This document shows positions 8,772-32,270 of a stretch of DNA of 64,000 nt, in pieces. The translations under genes and the position numbers were made by a program. The first letter of the stretch is position 1. Every line of letters begins with the position of its first letter. The DNA comes from a virus, in IMG/VR virus record IMGVR_UViG_3300027628_000003, positions 1 to 64,000 of that record. The stretch is one strand, 5' to 3'. Under the pieces are notes generated by a model that did no database searches, had not been told where the DNA came from, and saw only the letters and a list, made by a program, of their open reading frames with translations.

Positions 8772-8804
8772 TAAAAAAAGGAGGGGTTTGAAAATCAACC
8801 CCTC
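8772..8804 (-). terminator. intrinsic terminator
   Basis: GAGGGGTT-N8-AACCCCTC followed by CTTTTTTTAT. Confidence 0.7.
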
Positions 8805-9082
8805 GGAAGTACCGACCCTGCATATTTGGCTATATAGCCTTTAGCAGGCTCGAATCTATCAATATTCGCCTGTATATCTTCTGCATTAGCAAACTCCGCT
8901 ACACCTTCTACCTTTCTAAAACCCCACTTAGTAAAGTAAGAGGATACGTGTTGTCTAATAGCCTCACCTTTAGTAAAGCCATCTGATGCCTTTCGAATGT
9001 AGTATTTACCATTCTTGTGATATAGTATCTTATCATCTTTGTGGTCTTTAGTGAGTTTAATACCTTCTACTACCATTTTCAT
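8795..9082 (-). CDS. hypothetical protein
   Basis: 95 aa, lying 10 nt downstream of the 932-aa gene. A terminator overlaps its stop. Confidence 0.6.
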   Translation of the reverse strand: MKMVVEGIKLTKDHKDDKILYHKNGKYYIRKASDGFTKGEAIRQHVSSYFTKWGFRKVEGVAEFANAEDIQANIDRFEPAKGYIAKYAGSVLPRG

Positions 9083-9092
9083 TTAGTCCACC

Positions 9093-11891
9093 TCATTCAT
9101 ATCTTAATCCTATACCTTGTGACTCTGCAAACATTTTCATTAGCTCATGGTGGTCTTGCCATGCTGGGTCACTCTGCCAGTGTTCAGGTACTAGAACATG
9201 GTCTACGTCCTTAGCCAAATCCACTCCCCCAAGTACCTGTGCTTCAAAGTACTCTTTATCGTCATTGAATGTTGTACCCTCAATAACGGAGTTCATAGCA
9301 CGTCTACGCTTACCATCAGCATTCTTAGGCTCTTTCCAACGCCCAAACCAACGGTGTATTACTAGGTGATGTGGGTCTGTAGCAGAGTGTACTAGTTTAC
9401 CTTCTTTACCATAAGGTATTGAGTTAGAGTCGTGTGGCGTACCAGAAGCACGTTTCTTAACATCTTCCTTCATTACTAGGGCTGCACCACCATGTTGTCC
9501 TAGGCTCAAGCCCTGGTTAAAGATATCTAGCACACCATATACTGGGCGCTCATGGTCTTCTGCACCATCAAAGTCATCACCATAGATATCACGTTCAATG
9601 ACCTCTCTATGCTCTCTGTCATACCCTCTGTCTAATTGGAAATCGTTCTTTAGCTTACCTGAAGACATCATTTCCTCTAGCATAGATGTACCACTGTCTA
9701 GCATTTCTGTAGGATCAAAGTGTATCATTAACTTAGCATTACGGGCACCTTCAACAAAGGCATCATATACTTCATCTACCATTGCTGTATTGGTAGGGTC
9801 AATACCGTGGTCAAGAGCTAACGACTTAGTAGCCCACTTCTTAGCACGATGTTCAAATTTCTTACTGTTAAGTTTGGCTCTATCAATACCTACTCTCTCA
9901 TGGAGAGTCAGAGTAACGTTGTCACCATAATCAAACTCTTCAGCTTGAATTCTTCCCTCTGTATTGAAATCGTCGTTAGTCATCTTAAACTTATTACCTT
10001 TGGCAATGTGCTTCTGAATAGCAGTCGCTACCCTCATCCATCTGATAGCTGGGTGTTCCACTACATTACCCTTCTTATCTAATAGGTCTACTTCAATACC
10101 TTGCTTCAGTGCTTGGTCTTCTAAAGCCTTCTTACCATACTTCTTACCAAGAGCTTTAACCTGTTCACGAACTGCATCTGTTACAATAGTATTGGCTTCC
10201 TCCATAAGATGTTTACGTCTTGTACGTACTCCATTCAACATCTTACCTTTAGATAATTCTTTCTTGATAGCCATAGCACAGTTTTTCCAATCAATGTCAG
10301 GGTCTTTATGGTTCTCTTTCCATAGTAGGTCATGGTCTCTACACCAGTCCTTAATCTTTTCCCTGTCAAAGTCAAACTTGTTACAGAACATAAGGAAGAA
10401 CTTGTGGTCATCATCTTTCTTAATCTGTTTCATCTTTTCACTAGAGTCCTTATCGCTATGTGGCACTTCAAACTTGTTACCAGCAGCTATGTGTTCAGAT
10501 ATAGCATTGAAAACCCTAGTCCATAGAATCTTCTCATCTGTTAGTAATGTTCCATCTGCCTTCTTATCGTTCCACTTAATGCCAGCCTTTTCTGCACAAT
10601 CCATGATGTAGGATTTAGTATACATCTTATTAACATAACGCTTGAAGTGTTCCATATCATCTACATATTCTACAGGAACATCCACAACCATATGCTGACC
10701 ACGTTGAGTACCATCTGCTGATACACCCTTGCCAGAGGCAGATACTTCCTTCTTATTACCTTCTTCATCGGTAACTTCAGTCATTACGTCCTCTTTTAGT
10801 GCATCCTCATATTCTTTCTTCAGTTTAGGATTACCTAGTACAATTGCAGGAGCATGAGTCAGTCCTAATTCTCTAGCTAGGTCTACAAGGTGGTGCCCCT
10901 CAAGTATCTCCCCTTTATGGTTGACCTTAACAGGCTGTAACTTCTCACCTCTGTGGTATTTCTCCTTGGCTTCATTGTAGGCTTCCTTGTCAGTAGAGTA
11001 ATTGTGTTCCTTATTCTTGAAGTCCTTTACCTCATGCTGGACTACTGGGAAACGGTTATGCTGACGTCTCTCTATTTCCTTTACCGACTTGTCATCATGC
11101 TTGTATGTTGTATGATTCTCTTGGTCAGGTACTTTTTGATGTACTTCAGCCTTCTCATCATTGGGGTCAATCCACTGCATACGATAGAAGACTTTTCCAT
11201 CCTTACCCTTAACCATTACACGTCTCTTAACTAGCTTTCCTCTGTTAAGAGTGGCTTTATTGATGTCAAGTACTAGAGCTACTTTGTTGTATTCTGGTCT
11301 GCCCTCAATCACCAAGTCTACAGACTTCCATACAGCACGATACTTCCCTTTTGCGTCTCTTAACTTGTCTGGGTCATCTCCCACTACCTTACAAGGAACG
11401 TGTGTATATCCTAGCTCTTTGGAAGCTTCCCATCTATGGTGCCCATCGTGGACATCATAGTTATATCCGATTTCAACGGGTTGAAGTGGCTTACCCATTC
11501 GCATCGAAACTTTGTTTTGAGCGATTTTTCTCCTATTAAGTGCTAGGCGAGTTTGGTAGACTTGCTTCAAACGGTTGACTGGAATGTAAATTACACCGTG
11601 GTCAGAATGCACCTTGTACGCATGACGTCTAGCACCCCTAGGAAGATGAACACGTCCTGCCTTTGCTACCTCTTCTTCGTGGATTATTTTCTCTAACTCA
11701 AAGTACTCTTCTATGTACTCCTCATCAGATTTAATAATTAGTTCTGGCTCTGTGCTCTTCCATACCTCTGGGCGTAGGTCATTCTTGAAGTTCTCTAAAC
11801 CTAGCTCATGTACTAACTTATCCTTTTTCTTATCTTTTTTGGAATCTTTAGGCTTAGCATCTATTCTAATGTAGCATTTTCTTCTACTCAC
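9093..11891 (-). CDS. large polyvalent-type protein with two ParB/Srx-fold (nuclease-like) domains, three internal repeats and an unassigned C-terminal domain
   Basis: 932 aa with a GTG start after aagaaggagg. ParB-type boxes are IPVNRL...QPVEIGYNYDVHDGHHRWEASKELGYTHVPCKVV (aa ~100-170) and QPVKVNHKGEILEGHHLVDLARELGLTHAPAIVL (aa ~318-352). There are three repeats of type GI.W...I.W.RV..AI..HIA.GNKF (aa ~430-650). Confidence 0.75.
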   Translation of the reverse strand: MSRRKCYIRIDAKPKDSKKDKKKDKLVHELGLENFKNDLRPEVWKSTEPELIIKSDEEYIEEYFELEKIIHEEEVAKAGRVHLPRGARRHAYKVHSDHGVIYIPVNRLKQVYQTRLALNRRKIAQNKVSMRMGKPLQPVEIGYNYDVHDGHHRWEASKELGYTHVPCKVVGDDPDKLRDAKGKYRAVWKSVDLVIEGRPEYNKVALVLDINKATLNRGKLVKRRVMVKGKDGKVFYRMQWIDPNDEKAEVHQKVPDQENHTTYKHDDKSVKEIERRQHNRFPVVQHEVKDFKNKEHNYSTDKEAYNEAKEKYHRGEKLQPVKVNHKGEILEGHHLVDLARELGLTHAPAIVLGNPKLKKEYEDALKEDVMTEVTDEEGNKKEVSASGKGVSADGTQRGQHMVVDVPVEYVDDMEHFKRYVNKMYTKSYIMDCAEKAGIKWNDKKADGTLLTDEKILWTRVFNAISEHIAAGNKFEVPHSDKDSSEKMKQIKKDDDHKFFLMFCNKFDFDREKIKDWCRDHDLLWKENHKDPDIDWKNCAMAIKKELSKGKMLNGVRTRRKHLMEEANTIVTDAVREQVKALGKKYGKKALEDQALKQGIEVDLLDKKGNVVEHPAIRWMRVATAIQKHIAKGNKFKMTNDDFNTEGRIQAEEFDYGDNVTLTLHERVGIDRAKLNSKKFEHRAKKWATKSLALDHGIDPTNTAMVDEVYDAFVEGARNAKLMIHFDPTEMLDSGTSMLEEMMSSGKLKNDFQLDRGYDREHREVIERDIYGDDFDGAEDHERPVYGVLDIFNQGLSLGQHGGAALVMKEDVKKRASGTPHDSNSIPYGKEGKLVHSATDPHHLVIHRWFGRWKEPKNADGKRRRAMNSVIEGTTFNDDKEYFEAQVLGGVDLAKDVDHVLVPEHWQSDPAWQDHHELMKMFAESQGIGLRYE

Positions 11892-11971: not shown

Positions 11972-12004
11972 GAAAATAAAAAAGGAGGGGATAATCCCCT
12001 CCTT
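11972..12004 (-). terminator. intrinsic terminator
   Basis: AAGGAGGGG-N5-CCCCTCCTT followed by TTTTATTTTC. Confidence 0.75.
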
Positions 12005-12009
12005 TAATA

Positions 12010-14459: not shown

Positions 14460-14690
14460 TTATTCCTCCCTCTTTATTACAATTCTTAGGGGCTGTGTGA
14501 GTAAGTACATTAAGATTTGTTTATCCAGTTCCTGTAGTTGCTTTGACGCTTTCTCCTTACTTCCAATAGGTTGTGTTTCATCCCACACAACATCCAGTAG
14601 GTGCTTTTTAAGAGATAGGTAAGGTTCTGGTATGTCTTGTTGGAGTATCTCGATGTCAGTCCACTTTAGTGTACCAAATGTCTCCATCAT
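14460..14690 (-). CDS. hypothetical protein
   Basis: 76 aa, ATGA overlap with the upstream gene. Confidence 0.55.
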   Translation of the reverse strand: MMETFGTLKWTDIEILQQDIPEPYLSLKKHLLDVVWDETQPIGSKEKASKQLQELDKQILMYLLTQPLRIVIKREE

Positions 14691-15331
14691 TTACCCTCCT
14701 TGTGCTTGAAGTGTACTCTACGGTTAATTAACTTAGTCTCGCACCAATTCGATTCAAACTCCCTAAGAGCCTTTGCTAGGGAGTTCTTAGGGTTAGAGTA
14801 GTGCGTTTCGCAATGGTCTAGTATTTCGTTCATGGAAACCCAGCCACCCTTCAACTTTAGATACTTCTTCACCCTATCTATAGTCAGCTTGTAGTTGGTT
14901 ACGTACCCCCCACCACTTGAGCCACCCTCTAGCCACGTTTGGTGTTCAGGCTTTAGAACATCATCCCATTTAGTATTCTTATAAGGTCGATTAAACTTAG
15001 CCTTCAGTATTATGTCGGCTTTCCTCCAGCCACGGTCACTTACCTCTATAATGCCAATTCCCATACCAGACAGCAGGTTCCACACAAATGTAGGTATTGC
15101 TTTCTTACGTCTAGGTATGGCAATATAGATATAATGACCAAATCGCTTCCACTTATACGCTTGCTCAATAAGTTCCATTGACAGTGAAGTCTTCATCTCC
15201 ACTATGGCTACGGCAGGCTTGTTGTAACCAATTACGTCAGCCCTACCACTACCACCCCAAGAATTAACTTCTACCTCGGCATAGACCTCGTAGCCAATGC
15301 CTTCAAGTAGCTCTTTAACATACTTATACAT
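14687..15331 (-). CDS. PD-(D/E)XK-fold nuclease-like protein
   Basis: Start moved to the ATG at 15331 (MYKYVKELLEG...), 1 nt after the stop of the small membrane ORF. GRADVIGYNKPAVAIVEMKTS fits D-X13-E-X-K. Confidence 0.6.
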   Translation of the reverse strand: MYKYVKELLEGIGYEVYAEVEVNSWGGSGRADVIGYNKPAVAIVEMKTSLSMELIEQAYKWKRFGHYIYIAIPRRKKAIPTFVWNLLSGMGIGIIEVSDRGWRKADIILKAKFNRPYKNTKWDDVLKPEHQTWLEGGSSGGGYVTNYKLTIDRVKKYLKLKGGWVSMNEILDHCETHYSNPKNSLAKALREFESNWCETKLINRRVHFKHKEGK

Positions 15332-15332
15332 T

Positions 15333-15509
15333 TCATTTTCTTTCACGTTTACCCCACCCATACAGTATGGTGATTGCAAAAAGACACAGGCAGCAAGCTA
15401 CAATCAGTATGCCGACTGCTCTTGCTAAACCTGTATCAAAGTAACTCATTATTGTTCCTGTGATTAAAACCACTAGTCCGATTACTAGTACAATTAATTT
15501 GTCTATCAT
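15333..15509 (-). CDS. small membrane protein (58 aa)
   Basis: RBS aggagagacagaaaa before the ATG. MIDKLIVLVIGLVVLITGTIMSYFDTGLARAVGILIVACCLCLFAITILYGW gives two hydrophobic helices. Below the track cutoff. Confidence 0.45.
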   Translation of the reverse strand: MIDKLIVLVIGLVVLITGTIMSYFDTGLARAVGILIVACCLCLFAITILYGWGKRERK

Positions 15510-21059: not shown

Positions 21060-21153
21060 GCTCTCTCCCCTCCTTACAAAAAAGAATGCAAAAGAAAAAA
21101 GTTTTCTTTTATAGGAAAAAGGAGGTGACGTACTTTTTTATAGGGTGAAAATA

Positions 21154-21360
21154 AGGGGGTGGGGGTTGTAGAAAAGGGGTAGGGGGTGTATTTGGGGGGG
21201 TGTCGGGGGAGGTAGGGGGTGATGATGGGTTAGAAAAGTGGGGAGTGGTGCGTTGTGGTAGTGGGTTGGGGCGTGTGTGAGACTCCAAAGGAAACATGAT
21301 TCCTTACGTAGGCGAAAAAAGAAAACTTTAGGGGGTGGGGGTTAGAGATAGGGGGTGGTG
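21154..21360 (+). repeat. G-tract repeat region (TAGGGGGTG x4-5; many G4-G7 runs)
   Basis: aaGGGGGTGGGGGttg (21154), aaGGGGTAGGGGGTGta (21176), ttGGGGGGGtgtcGGGGGaggTAGGGGGTGat (21194-21222), then tTAGGGGGTGGGGGtta (21330) and aTAGGGGGTGgtg (21350). Confidence 0.8.
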
Positions 21361-21361
21361 C

Positions 21362-21526
21362 CTACCCACCCCGTACCTCTGGGTTCACTCGCTTCACTCC
21401 TGTACTTGTGTGTAGCCAGCTGTCATCCCTTATTGTCTTGCCATCCTTAGTCTTGATTAATCCCTCTGTGCCCTCACGCTTATGCACAGGCTTAACACTC
21501 TTGAACTGTCTCAGCTTATCACTCAT
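21362..21526 (-). CDS. small ORF (54 aa) carrying a KDGKT...W motif
   Basis: AAGGAGAAGATATAG-ATG, so the start abuts the stop of 21527..23398. Reads MSDKLRQFKSVKPVHKREGTEGLIKTKDGKTIRDDSWLHTSTGVKRVNPEVRGG. Below the track cutoff. Confidence 0.4.
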   Translation of the reverse strand: MSDKLRQFKSVKPVHKREGTEGLIKTKDGKTIRDDSWLHTSTGVKRVNPEVRGG

Positions 21527-23398
21527 CTATATCTTCTCCTTGTCCATTAGTCTTGAATATTGCTCTAGTTCTTCATCACTGATATCATCTAAGTCATCTA
21601 AGTCCTCTAGGTCTTCATAGTCTAAGTCCTCTTGCCCTGTGTCAGCTAGGTAGCTGTCAACCTTACTGTCACGTAGTTGCTCTTGGTATGCTTCACCATC
21701 AGTGTTGATATGCTTCTCAGCTTCCCATGATGACTTACTAGTAAGCATGAATGCCTTACCCAAGTGAGCATCACCTTTGATATCCTCAAAGTCATGTGCT
21801 GTCAGGTCATACCTGTAGCCATCATCTAGTTCAGCGAACTCCCAAGCATGCTCTAGGTCATCAACACTGTCATACCCACAGGCGTTCATGACTTCCTCTT
21901 CATCCCAACCGTTCTTATCTATGAACTCCCTAAGCTCTGACTTAGCAGTCTTTAGCTCATAACTGTCAGCAAAGTCAAAGCCCTTGCTCTTGTCAGCCCA
22001 TGCATAACAGCCTACTGTGATGTTAGCATTTATGCTTATCTTAACCTTGTTGCCCTTTGCCATGTGCTTCCACATCTGTTCACTTCTGTTATACACATTG
22101 CTTGCAATGCCTATATTCTGATAGTCCTCATCTATCTCTAATGCATCGTTATGCACTACTAGGGAGCCATCGTGGTCACGACCAATTGTACGGTTGATAA
22201 TACCAGCATGGAATCCATCCTTTGATTTAAGCTTGATAGCCATAGACCAGTTGATATCATATTTACCCATGCCTAAGTCAAACACATCAGGATGGATGAG
22301 AGCTATATGGGCAGTGTACTTGCCTTCAGGTGAGCTAAACACATGCTCTATAGCACTAGGTGACAGTTCACCAAATATATCCTTAGCTGAAGCCTTAGCA
22401 GCATCCAATGGGCTGTTAAGCATATGCTTCATTGCTCTCTCATGTTGTTCATGTAGCTCATCATACTTGTCTTGGTCTCCTAGCAGGTCAGCTACTGTAT
22501 CCTCATCCATGTTCTCCAACTCATCAAAGTCTATACTTTGAGTGATTGCTTCCTTTTTGTTCTTCCCTTGCATCTCTTTCTCAGTGGCTTCCCTACGCCA
22601 CTTAGCCATGTTATTAATCTTGTCATCGTGTGACTCTAGGCTAGGGTCATAGTCCTCTGGTGTGCCATATGCAGGCTTCTCATCAGCCTTAGGCTTATCC
22701 TCAACCACTAGCTTTGGCTCTTCCTTAGGTTGTTCTGGCTCTTGCTTATCAGGGTCTGGCTCCATAGCCTTGACAGCATTATACTGTGGACTATCCTCAC
22801 CATATGTCATCTTGGTTAGCTCCTTGGCTCTCTCCATATCAGCACCATTCATGCCCATAGTAGCCCAACCAATGTCCATTGTAGAGCCTTCATCAAGAGT
22901 CTGTAGGAATGAGTGAGGTAGTTGCTCACTTAACTCACCCATACGCTCAGCTTCTAACTTTGTATGACCAGCATCATTAATCATAGCAGTATGCTGGAAG
23001 AAGTCACCATCATGAATAGCTAAGTACTTGTTAGCACCATGCCTGATGTGGTTATCTGTGAACTGTCCACCCATAGCTGACTCCTTGGTCTCAGGTAGAT
23101 ACACAGGACTCTTAGTGTGTAGCTTGTTCTTCAGTGCTCTCTCACTATGAATCCCTTGTGCAGCTAGCGCTTGCTTATACTGTGGATGTTCGTTGATACC
23201 ATGTCTCATTGCCTCTTTCAAGTGGTCTTCATTATGGATTGCCCTCATACCATGACCAGTACTGGCATCCCATGGATTCACCCATTGCATACGGAAGAAC
23301 GTCTTACCGTCCTTCCCTTTAACCATTACACGCTTACGTGTCAGCTTACCAGTGTTGAGTGTGTGCATTCCCTTGCTTATGTTTATATACAGTTCCAT
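21527..23398 (-). CDS. large acidic protein sharing an N-terminal module with the ParB polyvalent protein (probable virion/ejected protein)
   Basis: Start moved to the ATG at 23398 (MELYINISKG...), 2 nt after the terminase stop. LNTGKLTRKRVMVKGKDGKTFFRMQWVNPWD matches LNRGKLVKRRVMVKGKDGKVFYRMQWIDPND of 9093..11891. It has D/E-rich linkers. YQNIGIASNVY weakly resembles a GNAT acetyl-CoA loop. Confidence 0.7.
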   Translation of the reverse strand: MELYINISKGMHTLNTGKLTRKRVMVKGKDGKTFFRMQWVNPWDASTGHGMRAIHNEDHLKEAMRHGINEHPQYKQALAAQGIHSERALKNKLHTKSPVYLPETKESAMGGQFTDNHIRHGANKYLAIHDGDFFQHTAMINDAGHTKLEAERMGELSEQLPHSFLQTLDEGSTMDIGWATMGMNGADMERAKELTKMTYGEDSPQYNAVKAMEPDPDKQEPEQPKEEPKLVVEDKPKADEKPAYGTPEDYDPSLESHDDKINNMAKWRREATEKEMQGKNKKEAITQSIDFDELENMDEDTVADLLGDQDKYDELHEQHERAMKHMLNSPLDAAKASAKDIFGELSPSAIEHVFSSPEGKYTAHIALIHPDVFDLGMGKYDINWSMAIKLKSKDGFHAGIINRTIGRDHDGSLVVHNDALEIDEDYQNIGIASNVYNRSEQMWKHMAKGNKVKISINANITVGCYAWADKSKGFDFADSYELKTAKSELREFIDKNGWDEEEVMNACGYDSVDDLEHAWEFAELDDGYRYDLTAHDFEDIKGDAHLGKAFMLTSKSSWEAEKHINTDGEAYQEQLRDSKVDSYLADTGQEDLDYEDLEDLDDLDDISDEELEQYSRLMDKEKI

Positions 23399-23402
23399 AT
23401 CC

Positions 23403-25079
23403 TCACATCCTATCGTATCCAAATGTTCCACCACCAGAAGGCATGAAGTCATAATCAAGGTTAGTGCTAGGCTCATGCAACGCAAGTATCCTGTCAAGAG
23501 CTATATACGCATATGTTAATGAACAGGCTAAGTGGTCATCCCCTACACGTGTTACCCTTTCATACACTTCTCCATCTTCCTCTTCCATTATGGTTCTCAC
23601 GTTCTTTAAGTGCTTGGTTAACATATCCAGCTTCTCACACTGACCAAACATCCCTATTGCTCTTGCTTTCAGGTTGTATAGAGTACGCTTCATCTTAGTA
23701 GTCTTGTCAACCCTTACACGTCTACCTTTGTCATTCCATGCATCCACAAGAGGTATTGATGTTCTAGGTGTATCCCAGTCACATGCATATACTCTACCTG
23801 GGAACTGTTGCATCAAGTAACTGTTTCGGTCAGCCCCAAAACCATTATCGGCAACAATCACATCAGGGTCAAATGGCTTCAATAGAGCTGTGAAGATGTT
23901 AACGCTCTCTAATGGCTTGTTAGGGTTGTCAGCTACCCAATGCAGGTCTAGCAGGTCTACACGGTTGTCATGAGTAAGACCTAACACTACCATCCAGTTG
24001 AAGTAACCCCAGTCTACTCCAGCTACAATCTTCTGATACTTTGAATAATCCCTGTAACCTATTGGCTCTTCATACTTCTTACACGCAAGTATGTCTTGGT
24101 CAGTGATAAGCAAGCCTTCAGATGCATAAGGTATACCAATAACGTAGTTATAGAACAATTGCTTAATCTTATACTGGAATTGGTTACGCATTATCTCATC
24201 AGCATTAATCCATACAGCGTCTAGCTGACTGATGTGATAGCCACGTATCTCATGCACATCTGGGTGCTTTGCTACGTACTCACCTTGGTGCCAACGGTTA
24301 AGCTCTTGCTTACACTTGCTACAGATGAACATGAACGTTCCGTTCTGTATTTGCTCCCTAACTATATCAATACCATCATCCTTGACCTGTAGGATGTTAT
24401 CCTCAACAGTAAGGAATTGCCAATGGTTACACTTCTCACACTTGTGATGGTAGAAGCGTTGGTCACTCTTCTGGAATAGTAAATCCACTCCACGACCAGG
24501 TATAGTAGGAGTACTCCAACGTCTCATTAGACCATATGCAGATGACTTCATAGACTCACGGAAGGCTAGCTCCACTCCATCTTTCATACGGTCATACTCA
24601 TCCAGTCCTAGCATATCAATATCGGTACCCTCACCCAGTGCACTACCCCACGCTGAACGTAGGAACAACACTGATTGATTAGTAAGCTTTTTAAGACGAA
24701 CGTTGTTCATCTTAGGGTCAAGACGACTGTTCAAGTATGCTGACTCAGTAAAGATAGGAGTTATACGAGTGTTACTAAAATCCTCCATTTGCTCTTTACG
24801 TGGGAACGTATACATGGCTTTAGTATTTGGATGAGTGTCCAAGAACCATGTAAACTCTGTGATAGCCATCTCTGACAGACCTAACTGACGTGACTTACGT
24901 ACTACCTTATCAGGGTGCTGGTCATTAAGGATGTCTATTTGCCAAGGTCTATGTTTGATTGCATTCTTCGTACTATGGAATGTAAGGGGGTTTCCCTTGA
25001 TGAATCTATGTCTCAACGCATATAGAGATGGTGTCTTGTTTATTAGCATCTCTTGCAGTTGTGCTTTGGATATTTGCAT
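23403..25079 (-). CDS. terminase large subunit
   Basis: 558 aa with RBS aaggagggagaaag. ATPase motifs are KSRQLGLSEM (Walker-A-like) and DMLGLDEYDRM (Walker B). The C-terminal nuclease-type acidic motifs are VAGVDWG and VGDDHLACSLTYA. Confidence 0.75.
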   Translation of the reverse strand: MQISKAQLQEMLINKTPSLYALRHRFIKGNPLTFHSTKNAIKHRPWQIDILNDQHPDKVVRKSRQLGLSEMAITEFTWFLDTHPNTKAMYTFPRKEQMEDFSNTRITPIFTESAYLNSRLDPKMNNVRLKKLTNQSVLFLRSAWGSALGEGTDIDMLGLDEYDRMKDGVELAFRESMKSSAYGLMRRWSTPTIPGRGVDLLFQKSDQRFYHHKCEKCNHWQFLTVEDNILQVKDDGIDIVREQIQNGTFMFICSKCKQELNRWHQGEYVAKHPDVHEIRGYHISQLDAVWINADEIMRNQFQYKIKQLFYNYVIGIPYASEGLLITDQDILACKKYEEPIGYRDYSKYQKIVAGVDWGYFNWMVVLGLTHDNRVDLLDLHWVADNPNKPLESVNIFTALLKPFDPDVIVADNGFGADRNSYLMQQFPGRVYACDWDTPRTSIPLVDAWNDKGRRVRVDKTTKMKRTLYNLKARAIGMFGQCEKLDMLTKHLKNVRTIMEEEDGEVYERVTRVGDDHLACSLTYAYIALDRILALHEPSTNLDYDFMPSGGGTFGYDRM

Positions 25080-27785: not shown

Positions 27786-27901
27786 TAAGACTGCCCCAAG
27801 GCTTCAGGGGACGCTAGGCGTCCTAGTGCTGCCTCTGCTGTATCAGGTAGTGCATAAGCCCTGTCCTGCGCCACGCAAATGCTCGATATTAATAGCCCGT
27901 G

Positions 27902-28079
27902 TATATCGTATTATTCGTATATTAAGAGTATGCTGCTCCAAGGATATCGTGTTATTGTGATATAGTCCGTATATATCGTATTATTCTTATATTAAGAGTA
28001 TGTGTTTTAGTATATTGTGTTTTGTGTATATATTAAGTGTGTAATATGCGTATATCGTATTATTAGTATGTTAAAAGGG
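27902..28079. repeat. three ~30-bp direct repeats
   Basis: TATATCGTATTATTCGTATATTAAGAGTATG at 27902, TATATCGTATTATTCTTATATTAAGAGTATG at 27972, and TATATCGTATTATTAGTATGTTAAAAG at 28051. Confidence 0.75.
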
Positions 28080-28129
28080 ATTTATATAGTGAAAAGAGAA
28101 TATTAGAACATTATTATATATTTATATTA

Positions 28130-28220
28130 GCGATAAGGGTTGTGGTGGGGGAACTGGTGGTGAGGCGATACCTCGCTCTTCTTTATATGAAGCAAGTTTC
28201 TACCTAACCCCCATAGAAAC
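28130..28220 (+). repeat. dispersed early-region repeat, copy 2 (GGTGG box + palindrome)
   Basis: gcgataaGGGTTGTGGTGGGGGaaCTGGTGGTGagg ... GTTTCTA-cctaaccccca-TAGAAAC (28196-28220), about 45 bp upstream of P1. Confidence 0.7.
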
Positions 28221-28265
28221 GCCTAGGGCTAGGCGTATAGCCCCACTCTACCTACCGAAACGTCC

Positions 28266-28294
28266 TTGACTTTCAGCCCCACTCGTGGTAAAAT
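28266..28294 (+). promoter_or_regulatory. strong sigma-A-type early promoter P1
   Basis: aaaCGTCC-TTGACT, 17 nt ending TGg, then TAAAAT. Followed by the leader aagTTCAAGaggaggaGGGcac. Confidence 0.7.
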
Positions 28295-28378
28295 AAGTTC
28301 AAGAGGAGGAGGGCACTACACCAGAGAGGGTAGCACCCACCACCAACAAAATCATAAGATAAAAGGAGATTGATTAAT

Positions 28379-28780
28379 ATGGCTAAAACTAAAAAGGTAG
28401 ACGCAGTGAAATTCGTAGAGGAAAAAGGCTTCCCAGAGGTAGGACACTTTGAGGAGAAAAAAGACCTACAAAAATTCTACAAACAACTGGATGACGTAGC
28501 ACTACTAGAATGGATTGAAGTAGAAGGATTAGAGTTCAAACCTTGTGAGGATAGCGAGGCTATCAACAGAATGAGAATGTGTATGGCTATCCTATACAAA
28601 CACTTCCCTAAGGCACCAACAGCTAAGAAGAAAGCTAAGTACGCAGACTACACTATGGAACAGCTTATGCAGATGTGCTTAGACAACGATGTAGCAGTAG
28701 AGTACACTGAGAGCGAACAAATCATGCGTATGAGAACTATCATGGCTCTACGTGCAGCAGGTCATATCGAGAAAGCTTAA
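28379..28780 (+). CDS. early-cassette protein, family A (paralogue of 29942..30349 and of the C-terminus of 34988..35791)
   Basis: ATG at 28379. Carries the shared ~125-aa core PEVGHFE.KK.LQKFYKQL...W.EVEGLE(F/Y)KP...INRMR.CMAILY.HFPK...KKKAKYADYTME.LM..CLDND.AVEYT.SEQIMRMRTIMALRAAG. Lies downstream of a consensus promoter. Confidence 0.75.
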   Translation: MAKTKKVDAVKFVEEKGFPEVGHFEEKKDLQKFYKQLDDVALLEWIEVEGLEFKPCEDSEAINRMRMCMAILYKHFPKAPTAKKKAKYADYTMEQLMQMCLDNDVAVEYTESEQIMRMRTIMALRAAGHIEKA

Positions 28781-28792
28781 TGGTTGCTAGGC

Positions 28793-28810
28793 TACCCCCT
28801 ACGGGGGGTA
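28793..28810 (+). other. intercistronic stem-loop with UACG tetraloop
   Basis: TACCCCC-TACG-GGGGGTA, flanked by the conserved TTGCTAG ... CCATGGAGCT..AGCTACCTAGTTAAAAGGAGTGGT. Confidence 0.7.
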
Positions 28811-28854
28811 TCCCATGGAGCTTGTAAGCTACCTAGTTAAAAGGAGTGGTTAGT

Positions 28855-29172
28855 ATGAAGACTAAAACGTATATCCCTGAGTGGATTGTACTAGAGGAAA
28901 ACTCACCTAGTGAGATGCACTATATCCGTATGGTGGGCAGTGACGCTCGTGAGTACGATGGCACTGAGAGTATCTGGGTAATTATCTTTGACCATATCCG
29001 TGAGGATGAGTTCTGTGTATCTATCGTGGCTGTGAATGACTCGTTGGTGGGTAGCATAGTACCGTTTATGAGTACTGGAGTAGTGAGTGAGCTGAGTGCT
29101 AGAAACAACATGGAGTACCTGATGCAGTACGCTCGTAAAGGTATCGTGACTGTGGGAGGTGGTCTATTATGA
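28855..29172 (+). CDS. early-cassette protein, second cistron
   Basis: ATG at 28855 after the conserved CTAGTTAAAAGGAGTGGTTAGT. 105 aa. Confidence 0.65.
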   Translation: MKTKTYIPEWIVLEENSPSEMHYIRMVGSDAREYDGTESIWVIIFDHIREDEFCVSIVAVNDSLVGSIVPFMSTGVVSELSARNNMEYLMQYARKGIVTVGGGLL

Positions 29173-29321
29173 CTGAGTACTTCCCAGGCACTACTACCTG
29201 CGATATCTGTGATAAACCTTTCACTCAGATGTACCCTAATGACCCTGCCTATGATGCTCCTATGGACATCTGTGACGAGTGTAATGGAGGTGAGTGTATT
29301 GAAGACCGCAAGAACGATTAA
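29169..29321 (+). CDS. small C4 zinc-ribbon protein (50 aa)
   Basis: ATGA overlap with the upstream stop. Reads MTEYFPGTTTCDICDKPFTQMYPNDPAYDAPMDICDECNGGECIEDRKND (CxxC...CxxC). Below the track cutoff. Confidence 0.5.
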   Translation: MTEYFPGTTTCDICDKPFTQMYPNDPAYDAPMDICDECNGGECIEDRKND

Positions 29322-29435
29322 GCGTGTACTAGTGGTAACAGGAGCGTGTACGCTCCTTTACCTAGCTTGTAACCTAGTGTATACTGCATGCACATGGACG
29401 TATCCAGGAGTAGAAAAGCAATTAGAAGCATATCA

Positions 29436-29467
29436 AGACACCTACAGTAAGTAGGTGTCTATTTTTG
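29436..29467 (+). terminator. intrinsic terminator closing early cassette 1
   Basis: AGACACCTAC-agtaa-GTAGGTGTCT followed by ATTTTTG. Confidence 0.8.
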
Positions 29468-29691
29468 TGCGTTTGTGGGTGTAGGGCATCTTTTAGCCCG
29501 TTTTGGGGCTTTTGTGAGCGCAAAGGCTTTCGGGTTCAAAACGGTTTGAACGAGAAATTTGGGTAGGAAAATAGTAGCTCAAAAATCGTGTTTGGTGTGT
29601 TGTTCTGTGTCAGTTTTCTGCTTCAAAATCAGTCAGAACCATTTGTATATGAAAGAGAGAGAAGAGAGAAATTTGAGTATAAAAGATATAT

Positions 29692-29796
29692 GAGCGAAGG
29701 GTTGTTGTTGGGTGACTTTGGTGGTTGAAAGAGTATCTGATAAGCGAACTTCAATTGCTTTATTTGAAAGGAATTTCTAGGTAACCCCCATAGAAA
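29692..29796 (+). repeat. dispersed early-region repeat, copy 3 (GGTGG box + palindrome)
   Basis: gagcgaaGGGTTGTTGTTGGGTgacTTTGGTGGTTGaaagagtatctgataagcgaacttcaattgctttat ... TTTCTA-ggtaaccccca-TAGAAA (29774-29796), about 48 bp upstream of P2. Confidence 0.7.
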
Positions 29797-29843
29797 GCCC
29801 AACAGGGCTAGCGCTACCGTCCATCCTATATGAGTAAACGTCC

Positions 29844-29872
29844 TTGAGTATTCCACCCACCCGTGATATAAT
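29844..29872 (+). promoter_or_regulatory. strong sigma-A-type early promoter P2
   Basis: aaaCGTCC-TTGAGT, 17 nt ending TGa, then TATAAT. Leader ttaTTCAAGgggaGCGGGtcac. Confidence 0.7.
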
Positions 29873-29941
29873 TTATTCAAGGGGAGCGGGTCACACCGAC
29901 TCCTACTAGACCAGCCCACCGAGGCTTAGGAGGAATATGAT

Positions 29942-30349
29942 ATGAGTAAAAAAGAGAATATCAACGGTAAAGTAGACGCTATGGAATGGATTACTGCGAA
30001 TAATGGGTATCCTGAGGTAGGTATATTCGAGGATAAGAAATGGTTACAGAAGTTCTATAAGCAGTTACCTATCGAGGTTCTGGAGGACTGGTGTAGTGTA
30101 GAAGGATTGGAGTATAAGCCTAACGATAACGAACAGATCCATAGAATGAGAGTATGTATGGCTATCCTATACTTCCACTTCCCTAAAGAGCCTAGTACTA
30201 AGAAGAAAGCTAAATATGCAGACTATACTATGGAGGCACTTATGACACTCTGCCTAGATAATGATATAGCTGTAGAATATACAGATAGTGAGCAGATTAT
30301 GAGAATGCGTACTATTATGGCACTACGTGCAGCTGGTAAGATTCAGTAA
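29942..30349 (+). CDS. early-cassette protein, family A (paralogue of 28379..28780)
   Basis: 135 aa with RBS aggagg. About 60-70% identical by eye to 28379..28780. Lies downstream of a consensus promoter. Confidence 0.75.
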   Translation: MSKKENINGKVDAMEWITANNGYPEVGIFEDKKWLQKFYKQLPIEVLEDWCSVEGLEYKPNDNEQIHRMRVCMAILYFHFPKEPSTKKKAKYADYTMEALMTLCLDNDIAVEYTDSEQIMRMRTIMALRAAGKIQ

Positions 30350-30357
30350 GTTGCTAG

Positions 30358-30379
30358 TACTCCCTCTACGGAGGGGGTA
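30358..30379 (+). other. intercistronic stem-loop with UACG tetraloop
   Basis: TACTCCCTC-TACG-GAGGGGGTA with the same flanks. Confidence 0.7.
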
Positions 30380-30421
30380 TCATGGAACCTATTGGTTACC
30401 TAGACTAAAGGAGTGGTAAGT

Positions 30422-30697
30422 ATGTATGATGTAGTTAGTGAGTTAATACCTATGAGTGAGTCTGATATGGAGTGGGTACGTGAGCACCTGCGTGAGGTAG
30501 AGCCTAGTATACACAACGCTAGGTATTGGCGAGTAGTATACTGGTCTAATGAGAACGGTAGTGCTACTGAGATTCAGCCTATGGGTGTGAATATAGACGA
30601 GGACGTAGAGGGCTTCGGTGTAGGTGATTTAAATGGTGTAGCCTACTGGAGTAAGTACCTGCGTGAGCGTGGCTTCCCTAGATATATGTTTGAGTGA
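30422..30697 (+). CDS. early-cassette protein, second cistron
   Basis: ATG at 30422 after the conserved CTAGACTAAAGGAGTGGTAAGT. 91 aa. A strong terminator follows. Confidence 0.65.
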   Translation: MYDVVSELIPMSESDMEWVREHLREVEPSIHNARYWRVVYWSNENGSATEIQPMGVNIDEDVEGFGVGDLNGVAYWSKYLRERGFPRYMFE

Positions 30698-30703
30698 GTG
30701 TGT

Positions 30704-30735
30704 AACCCTAGTACTGTGTGTACTAGGGTTTTTCT
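30704..30735 (+). terminator. intrinsic terminator closing early cassette 2
   Basis: AACCCTAGTA-N7-TACTAGGGTT followed by TTTCT. Confidence 0.8.
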
Positions 30736-30858
30736 ATGTCCTTTTCTGCTCCTATGTGAGTTGTATAGCAACTCTGTAAGTCGATTTCTCTCAAAGGTGA
30801 AAGGGTTCAAAGATTGAAGCAGGAGAAATTCGAGTAAGTGAGTGGTAGAATGTTAAAT

Positions 30859-30960
30859 AGGCGAAAGGTTGGTGGGGGGATTGAATGGTGGGAAGAGTTT
30901 CTGATGAGCGAACCGAATTGCTTTATAGGAAGTGAGTTTGTAGGTACTCCTCATAGAAAC
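30859..30960 (+). repeat. dispersed early-region repeat, copy 4 (orphan, no promoter follows)
   Basis: aggcgaaaGGTTGGTGGGGGGattgaATGGTGGGaagagtttctgatgagcgaaccgaattgctttat ... GTTTGTA-ggtactcctca-TAGAAAC (30936-30960). Confidence 0.65.
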
Positions 30961-30967
30961 GAGCATA

Positions 30968-30999
30968 AGAAAACCCTATATACGTTTGTGTATATAGGG
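30968..30999 (-). terminator. intrinsic terminator closing the leftward early genes (convergent with 30704-30735)
   Basis: CCCTATATAC-N6-GTATATAGGG followed by TTTTCTT on the minus strand. Confidence 0.7.
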
Positions 31000-31011
31000 T
31001 GTATATGGGTA

Positions 31012-31230
31012 CTAGAAGCCTGCTGGTTCTACATCTAGGTCTAGTACATCTCGTATCATATTGAATACATCTGCCCCTAGTAAGTTCTCATGTAGCCTAC
31101 TAGCTATAAGTTGTATATCATCCTCGTTAACCTCAGGTACGTCTATACCCTGCTCCTTACTATTCTGTATCTCTTCCCTTACCTTCTGTCTTAGCCATGC
31201 CACAGCCATTTCATCTGTAATAGTATTCAT
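31012..31230 (-). CDS. hypothetical early protein (probable paralogue of 31230..31460)
   Basis: 72 aa. Shares the W-L-R-x-(K/E)-V-R and D-(D/E)-D-I pattern with its neighbour. A terminator follows. Confidence 0.55.
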   Translation of the reverse strand: MNTITDEMAVAWLRQKVREEIQNSKEQGIDVPEVNEDDIQLIASRLHENLLGADVFNMIRDVLDLDVEPAGF

Positions 31231-31460: not shown

Positions 31461-31502
31461 ATTAACTCTCTCCTTTTATCTGTGAGTATAGGTATTCCAT
31501 GA

Positions 31503-31524
31503 GTAGCCCTGCGTACAAGGCTAC
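31503..31524 (-). other. intercistronic stem-loop with UACG tetraloop
   Basis: Minus strand reads GTAGCCTTG-TACG-CAGGGCTAC, preceded by TTGCTAG. Confidence 0.6.
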
Positions 31525-31534
31525 CTAGCAATCC

Positions 31535-31831
31535 CTATTTGTGAGTAGTGCACCCTATGAATGCCTTAGTAGGCAGGTAGTAGGTGAACTGTGGACTATC
31601 AGTATAGTTATAGCGAATCCATACACTATCTCTTTCGTTAGTGAATGCTATATCAGTGAATAGTTGTTGGAACTGCTCCGGTACCTCTCTGTATCTAGAG
31701 ATACCCTGTACAAATACCTCACCTTCTTCTAGTACATGTAACCCATAAGCAAAGGTAGGGTGCATATTCCACAGACTACCTGGGCTTACCTCTATAGTGA
31801 TGTGTGCATCTGCGTTACCTAATTCGTGCAT
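31535..31831 (-). CDS. hypothetical early protein
   Basis: Start placed at the ATG at 31831 (aagggagaggttaat-ATG). The track start at 31867 sits in the loop of an 8-bp intercistronic hairpin. Confidence 0.55.
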   Translation of the reverse strand: MHELGNADAHITIEVSPGSLWNMHPTFAYGLHVLEEGEVFVQGISRYREVPEQFQQLFTDIAFTNERDSVWIRYNYTDSPQFTYYLPTKAFIGCTTHK

Positions 31832-31857
31832 ATTAACCTCTCCCTTATATGTAAGTA

Positions 31858-31876
31858 CTAGGGGCATAGCCCCTAG
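31858..31876 (-). other. intercistronic stem-loop
   Basis: CTAGGGGC-ATA-GCCCCTAG, 8 bp. Confidence 0.55.
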
Positions 31877-31877
31877 C

Positions 31878-32270
31878 TTAGTACTCGCTGAAGTAGTATA
31901 CGTGTACCTCTACTCCATTAGCTAGAGTAACGTCATACTCCCCTGTATCTATACAGATACAATCTTGTAGCCCACTACAGCACTCTATACCTTCGTCTAC
32001 GTGCTTCCTATTTACACAACCTGACATAGAGTTACCAGCTATGTTACCTTCTGCGCTATGGTCTAGACCCTTAGCATAATGGTGTAGGTAGTGCACTGTA
32101 GCTAGCATATCATCCTCAGGTAGGTTATTAATATTGAATACGTAGTACTCTCTGTCATACTGTATACGTATAGGCTCCTCCTTAATACCGTGGTGGTCTT
32201 GGTTGGTACTGTATACTGCCTCATCTATTAAGCCCATAGGCATTGTGTCTGAACCGTACATAATTATCAT
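31878..32270 (-). CDS. hypothetical early protein (Cys/His-rich)
   Basis: 130 aa with RBS aggaggagatagta. First cistron behind the promoter at 32320-32348. Confidence 0.6.
   Translation of the reverse strand: MIIMYGSDTMPMGLIDEAVYSTNQDHHGIKEEPIRIQYDREYYVFNINNLPEDDMLATVHYLHHYAKGLDHSAEGNIAGNSMSGCVNRKHVDEGIECCSGLQDCICIDTGEYDVTLANGVEVHVYYFSEY

Follow-up and report, generated by a model that had tools for sequence, protein, structure and literature searches.

Two large proteins of a Bacillus phage, a 932-aa polyvalent-type protein and a 623-aa acidic protein encoded next to the terminase gene, share a leader module that recurs on a set of phage proteins with unrelated cargo. By analogy with internal head proteins of other phages, we lean, with slightly more confidence than doubt, towards reading this module as a capsid-targeting, protease-processing leader on ejected polyvalent effectors, in which case the tagged proteins would form one effector set. 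The window, that is the whole stretch of 64,000 nucleotides that was analysed, comes from a phage of the CP-51/Shanette/JL type, as judged by DNA comparison, and the genes, domains and terminator-like hairpins located on it below lie on its minus strand.

Domain architecture of the 932-aa protein

The ORF at 9093..11891 (Shanette gp68) starts with a GTG that has a GGAGG ribosome-binding site 8 nt upstream, and its DNA is 92-95% identical to the genes named 'ParB' in CP-51, Shanette and JL. Together with a 95-aa ORF on its 3' side (8795..9082), a partner of the ParB-ART gene that is kept in three distant phages, it forms one unit bounded by terminator-like hairpins, one 5' of the 932-aa gene (11981..12005) and a second after the 95-aa ORF (8781..8804). 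The 932-aa gene has a weak match to a sigma-70-like promoter. The encoded protein opens with a basic N-terminus and continues, in order, with a ParB/Srx-like domain, the leader module, another ParB-like domain, three repeats resembling SPO1 gp51 and a SopF-like ADP-ribosyltransferase; the start codon and the domain profile matches bear out the preliminary description of this ORF as one protein with two ParB-like domains.

These domains had been recognised from short boxes that called for profile-level support. For domain 1 (11319..11681, aa ~71-191, with DGHHRW at aa 149) such support came from NCBIfam SerK (E 6e-7), from several PHROG ParB families and from the many homologues that carry precomputed PF02195 matches, but the direct match to Pfam ParB_N (PF02195; E 1e-4, 22.6 bits) stayed under the cut-off of 26.3, and we therefore consider it a divergent member of the ParB/Srx superfamily and no classical ParB. 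Its nucleotide-binding motif, a GxxR-type box that here reads DGHH[R], has D-G-H-H invariant in 43/43 relatives, with the following Arg in 29/43, and because of this invariance domain 1 probably retains nucleotide-binding or nuclease activity. For domain 2 (10767..11045, aa ~283-375), matches to ParB families of PHROG range from E 2e-8 to 3e-9; its EGHHL motif is poorly kept, the GHH part being degenerate in the family (N31/G8, then H30, H34), so that this domain is probably non-catalytic. The DdrB-like ParB profile was not among the Pfam families matching the 932-aa protein at E <= 1, and none of the hub domains MPTase, MuF and DdrB-like ParB was detected in the protein with Pfam.

Three repeats of ~50 aa follow (9981..10634, aa ~420-476, 506-552 and 581-637). 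The count given earlier is borne out by pairwise z-scores, but the similarity is unequal (R1-R3 z 14.5, R2-R3 z 6.7, R1-R2 z 2.8) and the ending HIA.GNKF, previously ascribed to all three, is replaced by ELSKGKML in R2. The repeats are homologous to the repeat unit of SPO1 gp51 (hhalign probability 86%, E 5.6e-6), an assignment backed by precomputed PF26856 matches. SPO1 gp51 is a small stand-alone early protein, whereas the 932-aa protein embeds gp51-like units in a large multidomain protein.

The C-terminal domain (9096..9971, aa 641-932), in which no motif could be named at first, is a DUF3626/SopF-like ADP-ribosyltransferase by profile, fold and catalytic residues. It scores 30.2 bits against Pfam DUF3626 (PF12294; cut-off 27), homologues reaching E 3e-13, and its model (pLDDT 94) finds 7dn8_A as the best Foldseek match (E 9e-11, TM 0.60), followed by CopC, DarT and Tpt1. 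Three residues do not vary in 44/44 relatives: Arg in ERPVYG, Tyr in IPYG and Glu in YFEAQ. The first and the last of them align with the SopF motifs RPIY and YIEAH. The fold of SopF, a Salmonella type III effector (PDB 7dn8, 7dn9), matches the phage domain over its whole length, and the two share the RPxY motif and the catalytic-Glu motif at a sequence identity of ~12%. Unlike SopF, the phage copy is the C-terminal part of a multidomain protein that acts in a bacterium, and its target therefore cannot be the eukaryotic V-ATPase. In the CP-51 group both His of the His-x-His that follows the catalytic Glu in SopF are replaced, so that the enzyme of this group may be altered or inactive.

Polyvalent proteins of phages and conjugative elements were described by Iyer, Burroughs, Anand, de Souza and Aravind in 2017 (PMC5512222). 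Like the window proteins, they are large chains of effector domains that have nothing in common (ParB superfamily, ADP-ribosyltransferase, GNAT), and they are encoded beside packaging genes, as the module-bearing relatives are. The 932-aa protein combines at least 2 disparate activities in one polypeptide; its relatives in an Exiguobacterium phage and in IMG/VR directly follow the terminase or the acidic-protein gene, a packaging/late gene context; and it is linked to the polyvalent domain network through the module, which co-occurs with ART-PolyVal, InPase, LPD1, DUF6582 and RadC in the proteins P0145 and P0171. With its ParB-like domains, gp51-like repeats and ADP-ribosyltransferase, and with the module present in canonical polyvalent proteins, its initial classification as polyvalent-type is supported computationally. 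The name SopF/DUF3626, the type to which its ADP-ribosyltransferase belongs, is absent from the text of the network paper (PMC5512222).

The shared leader module and a second leader element

Residues 204-245 of the 932-aa protein (11157..11282) and residues 1-45 of the acidic protein (23264..23398) match each other with a BLASTP E of 3e-13, and a module profile run on a six-frame scan of the window retrieved both copies at E 1e-32 to 1e-35, in agreement with the module first noticed from the letters of the two genes. The range originally given for it was exact in the acidic protein but 6 nt off in the 932-aa protein, where that segment is 11157..11249. A weak module-like tail of ORF 14687..15379 (E 0.06) was taken as chance. 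The module had no match in Pfam even at E <= 10, none in NCBIfam or PADLOC, and no sequence relative in the PDB, so that the profile check gave no sign of a known or common fold.

An exhaustive profile search was needed to see how far the module extends, a first word-indexed search having returned only 3 short matches. It placed the module in 254 clusters at the 50% identity level (E <= 1e-3), 98 of them at E <= 1e-10. The module lies at protein N-termini or where two domains join, and it divides into a short, flexible part A, (M)ELYIDLxK[A/G/S], usually with a Lys-Ser pair before it in internal copies, and a part B; part B, LNxxKLVKKxVxVKGKxGKxFxRMQWVxP, is a predicted beta-hairpin rich in lysine and arginine. 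In the model of the acidic protein, part A, which reads MELYINISK|G, stays under a pLDDT of 50, and part B folds into a hairpin with strands at aa 20-27 and 33-40. The internal copy of the 932-aa protein has VALVLDINK|A as part A and LNRGKLVKRRVMVKGKDGKVFYRMQWIDP as the basic hairpin of part B, and the tripeptide WKS (aa 187-189) stands ~15 aa before it.

Across 205 module instances, the L, G and W positions are conserved at 99-100% (G and L 100%, W 99%), and the Lys of part A is present in 98%, with A, G or S next in 96%. Seventy-four instances begin at residues 1-8 of their protein as MELYIDL and 127 are internal. Part A can be made out clearly in 71 of the internal copies, and 40 of these have a Lys-Ser pair within the 8 residues before the module (expected fraction 5.8%); part A also occurs 29 times without part B against ~1 expected, counts that rest on sequences related to one another, so that P values drawn from them overstate independence. 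Most of the lone copies of part A have the form RKS..LIIDLxKADNxHLPKGAERFSY and stand right before ParB domain 1, or are found at protein N-termini.

The acidic protein (21527..23398; Shanette gp30) is encoded immediately 3' of the terminase large subunit gene (23403..25079), its ATG at 23398 lying 4 nt past the terminase stop codon and served by a GAGGA ribosome-binding site. Structure prediction presents it as the N-terminal module followed by a GNAT acyltransferase-fold domain (21704..22366, aa ~345-565): the best 50 Foldseek matches were all of the GNAT-type acetyltransferase fold (top E 3.6e-4, probability 1.00), and the acetyl-CoA-loop motif (Q/RxxGxG/A) takes the form QNIGIA in the window protein, against QGKGIA in the consensus of its family. 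The protein had no sequence match in Pfam and its family profile found nothing among PDB sequences, the GNAT domain being seen only by the fold search.

The 54-aa ORF that follows (21362..21526; Shanette gp31) begins with an ATG directly adjoining the acidic protein's stop codon. It had been taken for a degenerate copy of the module. We abandoned this assignment as unproven: the scores were weak (BLASTP E 0.11, module profile E 1.2, profile-profile probability in hhalign 16%), and an apparently strong hhalign match was an artefact, since the alignment used for it, A2, includes P0003, a protein that carries a 54-aa-type element. The ORF is instead a separately encoded version of another leader element, GxEGLxxxDGxxIxDDSWLH, which elsewhere lies 25-45 aa N-terminal to the module or between the acidic and ParB parts of fusion proteins. 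No Pfam or NCBIfam model matched the module, part A or the 54-aa element.

Tagged proteins and their gene neighbourhood

The first proposal, a module that labels several proteins as a group, is supported, and for a larger set than the one described: complete relatives encode 4-5 tagged proteins each, and in Shanette and CP-51 the module is present in gp30, gp68, gp87 and gp88, with a degenerate copy in gp90, which adds gp87, gp88 and gp90. The genes for gp87 to gp90 sit directly 5' of the portal and protease genes, and gp87 and the acidic protein are paralogues along the whole of their GNAT domains.

Fusions join the same parts in different ways. Four metagenomic proteins of 1430-1480 aa (P0013, P0018, P0029 and P0030) carry the acidic/GNAT protein, the 54-aa element and the ParB-ART protein fused in genome order, and P0049 to P0052 are fusions of ParB domain 1, the module and the body of the acidic protein. 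Further cargo on tagged proteins includes a topoisomerase IB and a zincin-motif protein, and most of the ~250 module-bearing clusters are without a known domain. Single-linkage clustering of the cargo parts gave no information, because multidomain chaining merged 175/191 proteins. The PHROG names 'DarB-like', 'minor head protein', 'endolysin' and 'virion structural protein' found among module proteins were likewise set aside as independent support, since all of them map to the InPase region of P0145 alone.

A terminase, portal, protease or capsid gene is found on the same strand within 10 kb of 44 of the 54 module loci in IMG/VR. Eight of the other ten are CP-51-type ParB loci with a 10-kb insertion, and two are truncated; in the window itself, the 932-aa gene is ~10 kb from the terminase gene, with small genes between. 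The genes for the terminase, the acidic protein and the ParB protein are all adjacent in the Exiguobacterium phage. Two unrelated contigs have, in order, the terminase, the portal, two genes (427-430 aa and 128-131 aa) and a module-bearing polyvalent protein, followed by a large SNF2 protein, directly in one contig and one gene later in the other.

Proposed capsid targeting, its alternatives and what they imply

Several sequence patterns hint at processing of these proteins by the head protease. The N-terminus of the CP-51 capsid protein (VDALNK|ALSAGHEVNP) and the C-terminus of the protease (VDEVEK|ALSAGYETNP) have a common motif, portal N-termini contain VDLSKSM and GDLNKSM, and in the scaffold protein Ser comes next after 12 of the 22 Lys, with K[SAG] occurring 15 times against 6.1 +/- 2.0 in shuffles. 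From these patterns we infer a head protease that would cut after Lys. A literature search found no published cleavage specificity for a head protease of the Herelleviridae.

A close parallel is the capsid-targeting sequence (CTS) of T4, a ~10-residue N-terminal peptide common to the otherwise unrelated internal proteins IPI-III and Alt, which ends at a prohead protease site and directs these proteins into the head for later ejection; Alt is itself an ADP-ribosyltransferase packaged in the head (PMC9026906). The analogy is one of position and motif, without sequence similarity. The CTS is cut after Glu, whereas the candidate cut in module proteins is after Lys, and, unlike the CTS, the putative targeting peptide is found within polyproteins too and precedes a conserved basic hairpin. 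[quoted passage not shown] The MuF domain of SPP1 gp7 is, like the module, a conserved N-terminal part on diverse effectors encoded beside portal and terminase genes (PMC5512222), but it is a much larger globular domain, and the module is not covered by any MuF match in Pfam or PHROG; Pfam searches at E <= 1 to 10 gave no MuF match for the two proteins or for the region of the module.

Under the capsid-targeting reading, the tagged proteins would be made alongside the head proteins and then recruited into the procapsid, where the head maturation protease would cut after Lys at the Lys-Ser sites just 5' of internal modules, and perhaps further at the invariant Lys of part A, freeing separate enzyme units from the polyproteins. 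The basic hairpin would remain on each unit and anchor it to DNA or to the core, and at infection the units would leave the capsid with the genome and work against host targets through ADP-ribosylation, acylation and attack on nucleotides or DNA. The 54-aa ORF would be the free form of the second leader element of the same system. The broader proposal, that the module, often with a 54-aa-type element 5' of it, is a general capsid-loading and processing signal for a Gram-positive myophage lineage, CTS-like and unrelated to the CTS in sequence, is offered tentatively, as a possibility that falls somewhat short of probable.

It is unlikely, in our estimate, that the tagged proteins are instead host-takeover effectors made in the infected cell and never packaged, with the basic hairpin as a DNA- or nucleoid-binding handle that would take the ParB, ADP-ribosyltransferase, GNAT and other enzymes to the DNA of host or phage. 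Such a role would suit the strongly basic, predicted hairpin of part B and the match of the 932-aa repeats to SPO1 gp51, which belongs to a host-takeover module and is no virion protein. It would also suit the position of the Shanette acidic protein and 54-aa ORF within the long terminal repeat; in SPO1 the terminal-repeat region holds host-takeover genes. The 932-aa gene, in its own terminator-bounded unit, adjoining a sigma-factor gene and at its distance from the terminase, would fit an intracellular, non-packaged effector as well. Against this stand the 44 loci beside terminase, portal or protease genes, with some module genes translationally coupled to the terminase gene, and the co-occurrence of the module with domains typical of virion-delivered polyvalent proteins; a simple DNA-binding domain would, moreover, have no need of the preference for exact N-termini and Lys-Ser-flanked junctions.

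We find it improbable to a still greater degree that the shared segment is functionless in itself, either the relic of a split, partly duplicated ancestral polyprotein or a recombination joint for cassette exchange. The same genes do exist fused and split, gp87 and the acidic protein are paralogous, and chimeras such as P0049 to P0052 change partners exactly at the module. But among clusters with overall differences above 50% the module is far better kept than the sequence on either side of it, the attached cargo is unrelated (ART-PolyVal with InPase, RadC, topoisomerase IB, the zincin-motif protein), and the recurrence of lone part A far above chance indicates selection on the peptide itself. 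Equally doubtful is a docking peptide for the terminase or portal from outside, or between tagged proteins, without proteolysis or ejection, which could draw on the copy coupled to the terminase gene, the flexible part A and a hairpin able to extend a partner's beta-sheet, but which leaves unexplained both the Lys-Ser enrichment at internal junctions and the likeness of part A to the end motifs of processed capsid, protease and portal proteins, with an enzymatic cargo that resembles host-directed effectors.

If the capsid-targeting reading is true, the leader would be a sequence signature for injected phage effectors in genomes and metagenomes, and, under the broader proposal, the ejected set could be defined by sequence alone, including a SopF-like ADP-ribosyltransferase, GNAT, ParB, topoisomerase IB and zincin-motif proteins and others. 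SPO1/CP-51-like phages would also gain an initial candidate for a signal of targeting and cleavage, one that might serve to bring foreign proteins into phage heads. Regardless of packaging, the SopF fold, that of a Salmonella effector acting on eukaryotic cells, is an end domain of bacteriophage multidomain effectors, and SPO1 gp51-like units and GNAT domains are part of the same tagged set.

ParB-like, repeat and SopF-like parts of the 932-aa protein

The 932-aa ORF 9093..11891 was found as reported in the preliminary description; like all the genes treated here, it lies on the minus strand. Its gene shows 92-95% DNA identity with genes of the Bacillus phages CP-51, Shanette, JL and S4-1 (Herelleviridae, Siminovitchvirus), where it is annotated as "ParB-like partition nuclease" or "hypothetical protein." Two ParB-like domains had been proposed. 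Domain 1 has profile-level support, by a match to NCBIfam SerK (E 6e-7), which likewise has the ParB/Srx fold, and by several PHROG ParB families, whereas its Pfam score of 22.6 bits (E 1e-4) falls short of the curated cut-off of 26.3 bits; its D-G-H-H residues are invariant across 43 relatives. Domain 2 was confirmed at profile level by PHROG ParB families (E 2e-8 to 3e-9) and is similar to domain 1 of relatives. As its GHH motif is unconserved in the family, we regard domain 2 as probably non-catalytic. The three repeats reported in the protein were also borne out against shuffles (z 14.5, 6.7 and 2.8), and hhalign pairs them with the repeated unit of SPO1 gp51 (probability 86%, E 5.6e-6), an assignment with which precomputed PF26856 "Phage_SPO1_gp51" matches on homologues agree.

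The C-terminal domain, in which no motif had been named, matches Pfam DUF3626 above the cut-off, a domain known from the Salmonella effector SopF (PMC6682159). A family profile of this domain picked up the SopF crystal structures 7dn8 and 7dn9, with the RPxY and Glu motifs aligned, and the AlphaFold model of aa 641-932 (pLDDT 94) gave a whole-length match to SopF (Foldseek E 9e-11, TM 0.60), followed by the ADP-ribosyltransferases CopC and DarT and then by Tpt1. The Arg, Tyr and Glu of the ADP-ribosyltransferase domain are invariant across 44 relatives. The sequence at window positions 9240..9266 (aa 876-884) is YFEAQVLGG in the CP-51 group versus Y(F/I)EAHIHG(G/D) in most relatives and SopF. 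This replacement of the His-x-His after the catalytic Glu in the CP-51 group may result in an altered activity. Foldseek also detected the SopF-like fold in giant viruses and in further phage proteins, including one called "minor capsid protein."

The shared module and the 54-aa element

The short module that had been noticed both inside the 932-aa protein and at the N-terminus of the acidic 623-aa protein (ORF 21527..23398) is indeed common to the two (BLASTP E 3e-13), and a six-frame scan of the window with a module profile recovered both copies at ~1e-32 to 1e-35. By an exhaustive profile search covering 1.84 billion representative proteins, the module was found in 254 clusters, 98 of them at E ≤ 1e-10; the proteins range from 54 to 1502 aa in length. 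A survey of 50,697 sequenced phages showed it only in the CP-51 group and in Exiguobacterium phage vB_EalM-132, with 3-4 strong copies each. The consensus of 205 instances consists of two parts with a variable insert between them: part A, (M)ELYIDLxK[AGS], in which D is conserved at 90% and K at 98%, and part B, LNxxKLVKKxVQVxGKNGKxFTRMQWVxP, in which L and G are conserved at 100% and W at 99%. The model of the acidic protein shows part A as disordered (pLDDT < 50) and part B as a beta-hairpin running into a small domain. The module begins at residues 1-8, as MELYIDL, in 74 instances and is internal in 127; Lys-Ser occurs no more than 8 residues before internal copies in 40 of 71 cases (5.8% expected). 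Part A alone was found 29 times against ~1 expected, typically at N-termini or immediately ahead of ParB domain 1. The C-terminus of ORF 14687..15379 (window 14690..14734, minus strand) ends in a tail, 'KLINRRVHFKHKEGK*', that bears a weak resemblance to the hairpin's first strand and turn (E 0.06-0.07), probably by chance.

The 54-aa ORF 21362..21526 had been taken for a degenerate copy of the module, a reading that did not reach significance (BLASTP E 0.11; profile E 1.2; hhalign probability 16%). It forms its own family, GxEGLxxxDGxxIxDDSWLH(PE). Since at least 20 module proteins have an element of this type at their N-terminus, 25-45 residues ahead of the module, and since such elements also lie between the acidic and ParB parts of fused proteins, the 54-aa ORF represents a further leader element within this system. 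In the window it has a gene of its own, whose translation is coupled to that of the acidic-protein gene. No entry in Pfam, NCBIfam, PADLOC or PDB was matched by the module, by part A or by the 54-aa element. The database entry P0003, an 88-aa fragment labelled "Xylella fastidiosa, partial," contains both the 54-aa-type element and the module and probably derives from a phage or from contamination of that assembly.

Tagged proteins and their gene neighbourhood

A Pfam search of the acidic protein gave no match. Its structural model has a confident domain at aa 345-565, with a QxxGxA loop, whose best 50 PDB matches all have the GNAT-type acetyltransferase fold. In Shanette and CP-51, extra module copies (gp87, gp88 and gp90) are encoded a short way beyond the window, immediately upstream of the genes for portal and protease. 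The 437-aa gp87, with an N-terminal module, is a GNAT paralogue of the acidic protein. The 1086-aa gp88 (27848..31108 in Shanette, L001) combines a 54-aa-type leader, the module, gp51-like repeats and an HExxH motif, VHESAHAID, which was read by eye without a profile match and suggests a zincin peptidase. The gp90 protein (31493..32035 in Shanette) has a degenerate module (E 1e-3) and, behind it, a tail very rich in Lys and Glu. In two unrelated contigs, canonical polyvalent proteins (ART-PolyVal, InPase, LPD1, RadC) have the module at their head, and their genes follow those for terminase and portal at a distance of a few genes. In a 368-aa protein of another relative (L006, 6730..7836), the module is fused to the catalytic core of a topoisomerase IB (Pfam E 1.3e-12); the gene for this protein is two genes after that of a terminase 51% identical to the window's.

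The three window ORFs are tied together by gene fusions that join their counterparts. Four metagenomic proteins of 1430-1480 aa follow the genome order, with the acidic/GNAT protein first, then the 54-aa element and finally the protein with ParB-like and ADP-ribosyltransferase domains (ParB-ART). In other fused proteins, ParB domain 1 and the module are combined with the body of the acidic protein. The genes for terminase, acidic protein and ParB protein are direct neighbours in the Exiguobacterium phage. Shanette encodes, in succession, terminase large subunit (gp29), acidic protein (gp30), 54-aa ORF (gp31), ~35 small genes, 932-aa protein (gp68), a 95-aa protein (gp69) and a sigma factor. 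A terminase, portal, protease or capsid gene lies within 10 kb on the same strand in 44 of 54 IMG/VR module loci; of the other ten, eight represent the ParB locus of the CP-51 type and two are on truncated contigs.

In the window, terminators enclose the 932-aa gene and its conserved 95-aa partner as a separate unit, which lies near a sigma-factor gene. The partner (ORF 8795..9082, minus strand) has conserved counterparts immediately behind the ParB-ART genes of the Exiguobacterium phage (E 5e-15) and of a metagenomic contig (E 7e-21), and its product could be a chaperone or inhibitor of the ADP-ribosyltransferase. The 54-aa ORF is immediately followed by ~240 nt of C-rich non-coding sequence (21130..21365, minus-strand reading), at the place where the annotated long terminal repeat of Shanette ends; this tract probably also accounts for the Pro-rich ORF 21109..21297, as a by-product. 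A 685-aa ORF with DUF4127 and an S-layer-homology domain (2005..4062, minus strand) looks like an inserted cell-wall-associated protein gene, as the stretch holding it aligns with none of Shanette, JL and CP-51.

Possible procapsid loading or host takeover

The homology, folds, architectures and neighbourhoods of the tagged proteins are direct observations, and we infer that the module probably acts as a leader for procapsid loading and head-protease processing, because exact N-termini are preferred, Lys-Ser precedes internal copies, part A recurs independently at domain boundaries and head genes are in the vicinity. This leader would be analogous to the T4 capsid-targeting sequence and to the propeptides of giant phages. 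Tagged proteins would be loaded into the procapsid via the leader and processed by the head protease, presumably by a cut after Lys, and the basic hairpin would remain on every released enzyme unit, where it could bind DNA or the core. The N-terminus of the CP-51 capsid protein and the C-terminus of its head protease, gp32, have VDxhxK|ALSAG.E.NP in common, and in the CP-51 scaffold protein Ser follows 12 of 22 lysines; both patterns look like a Lys-specific maturation cleavage motif. Portal N-termini carry the part-A-like VDLSKSM and GDLNKSM. Together, the capsid/protease, scaffold and portal patterns favour, circumstantially, cutting after Lys. Within the protease, scaffold and capsid genes of CP-51 (L003, 11908..14931), the two termini read K|ALSAG(Y/H)E(T/V)NP.

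Intracellular host-takeover proteins would also fit the data, given the similarity of the 932-aa repeats to gp51, the location of the acidic-protein gene inside the terminal repeat in Shanette and the separate terminator-bounded unit of the 932-aa gene close to a sigma-factor gene. The tagged proteins have the architectural and contextual features that serve as criteria for polyvalent proteins (PMC5512222), but differ from those in that the hub domains MuF, MPTase and DdrB-ParB were absent in Pfam searches. Because of these features, the absence of the hub domains and the lack of database matches for the leader parts, we regard the tagged proteins as polyvalent or putatively ejected effectors with a shared leader previously uncatalogued and a SopF-type ADP-ribosyltransferase.
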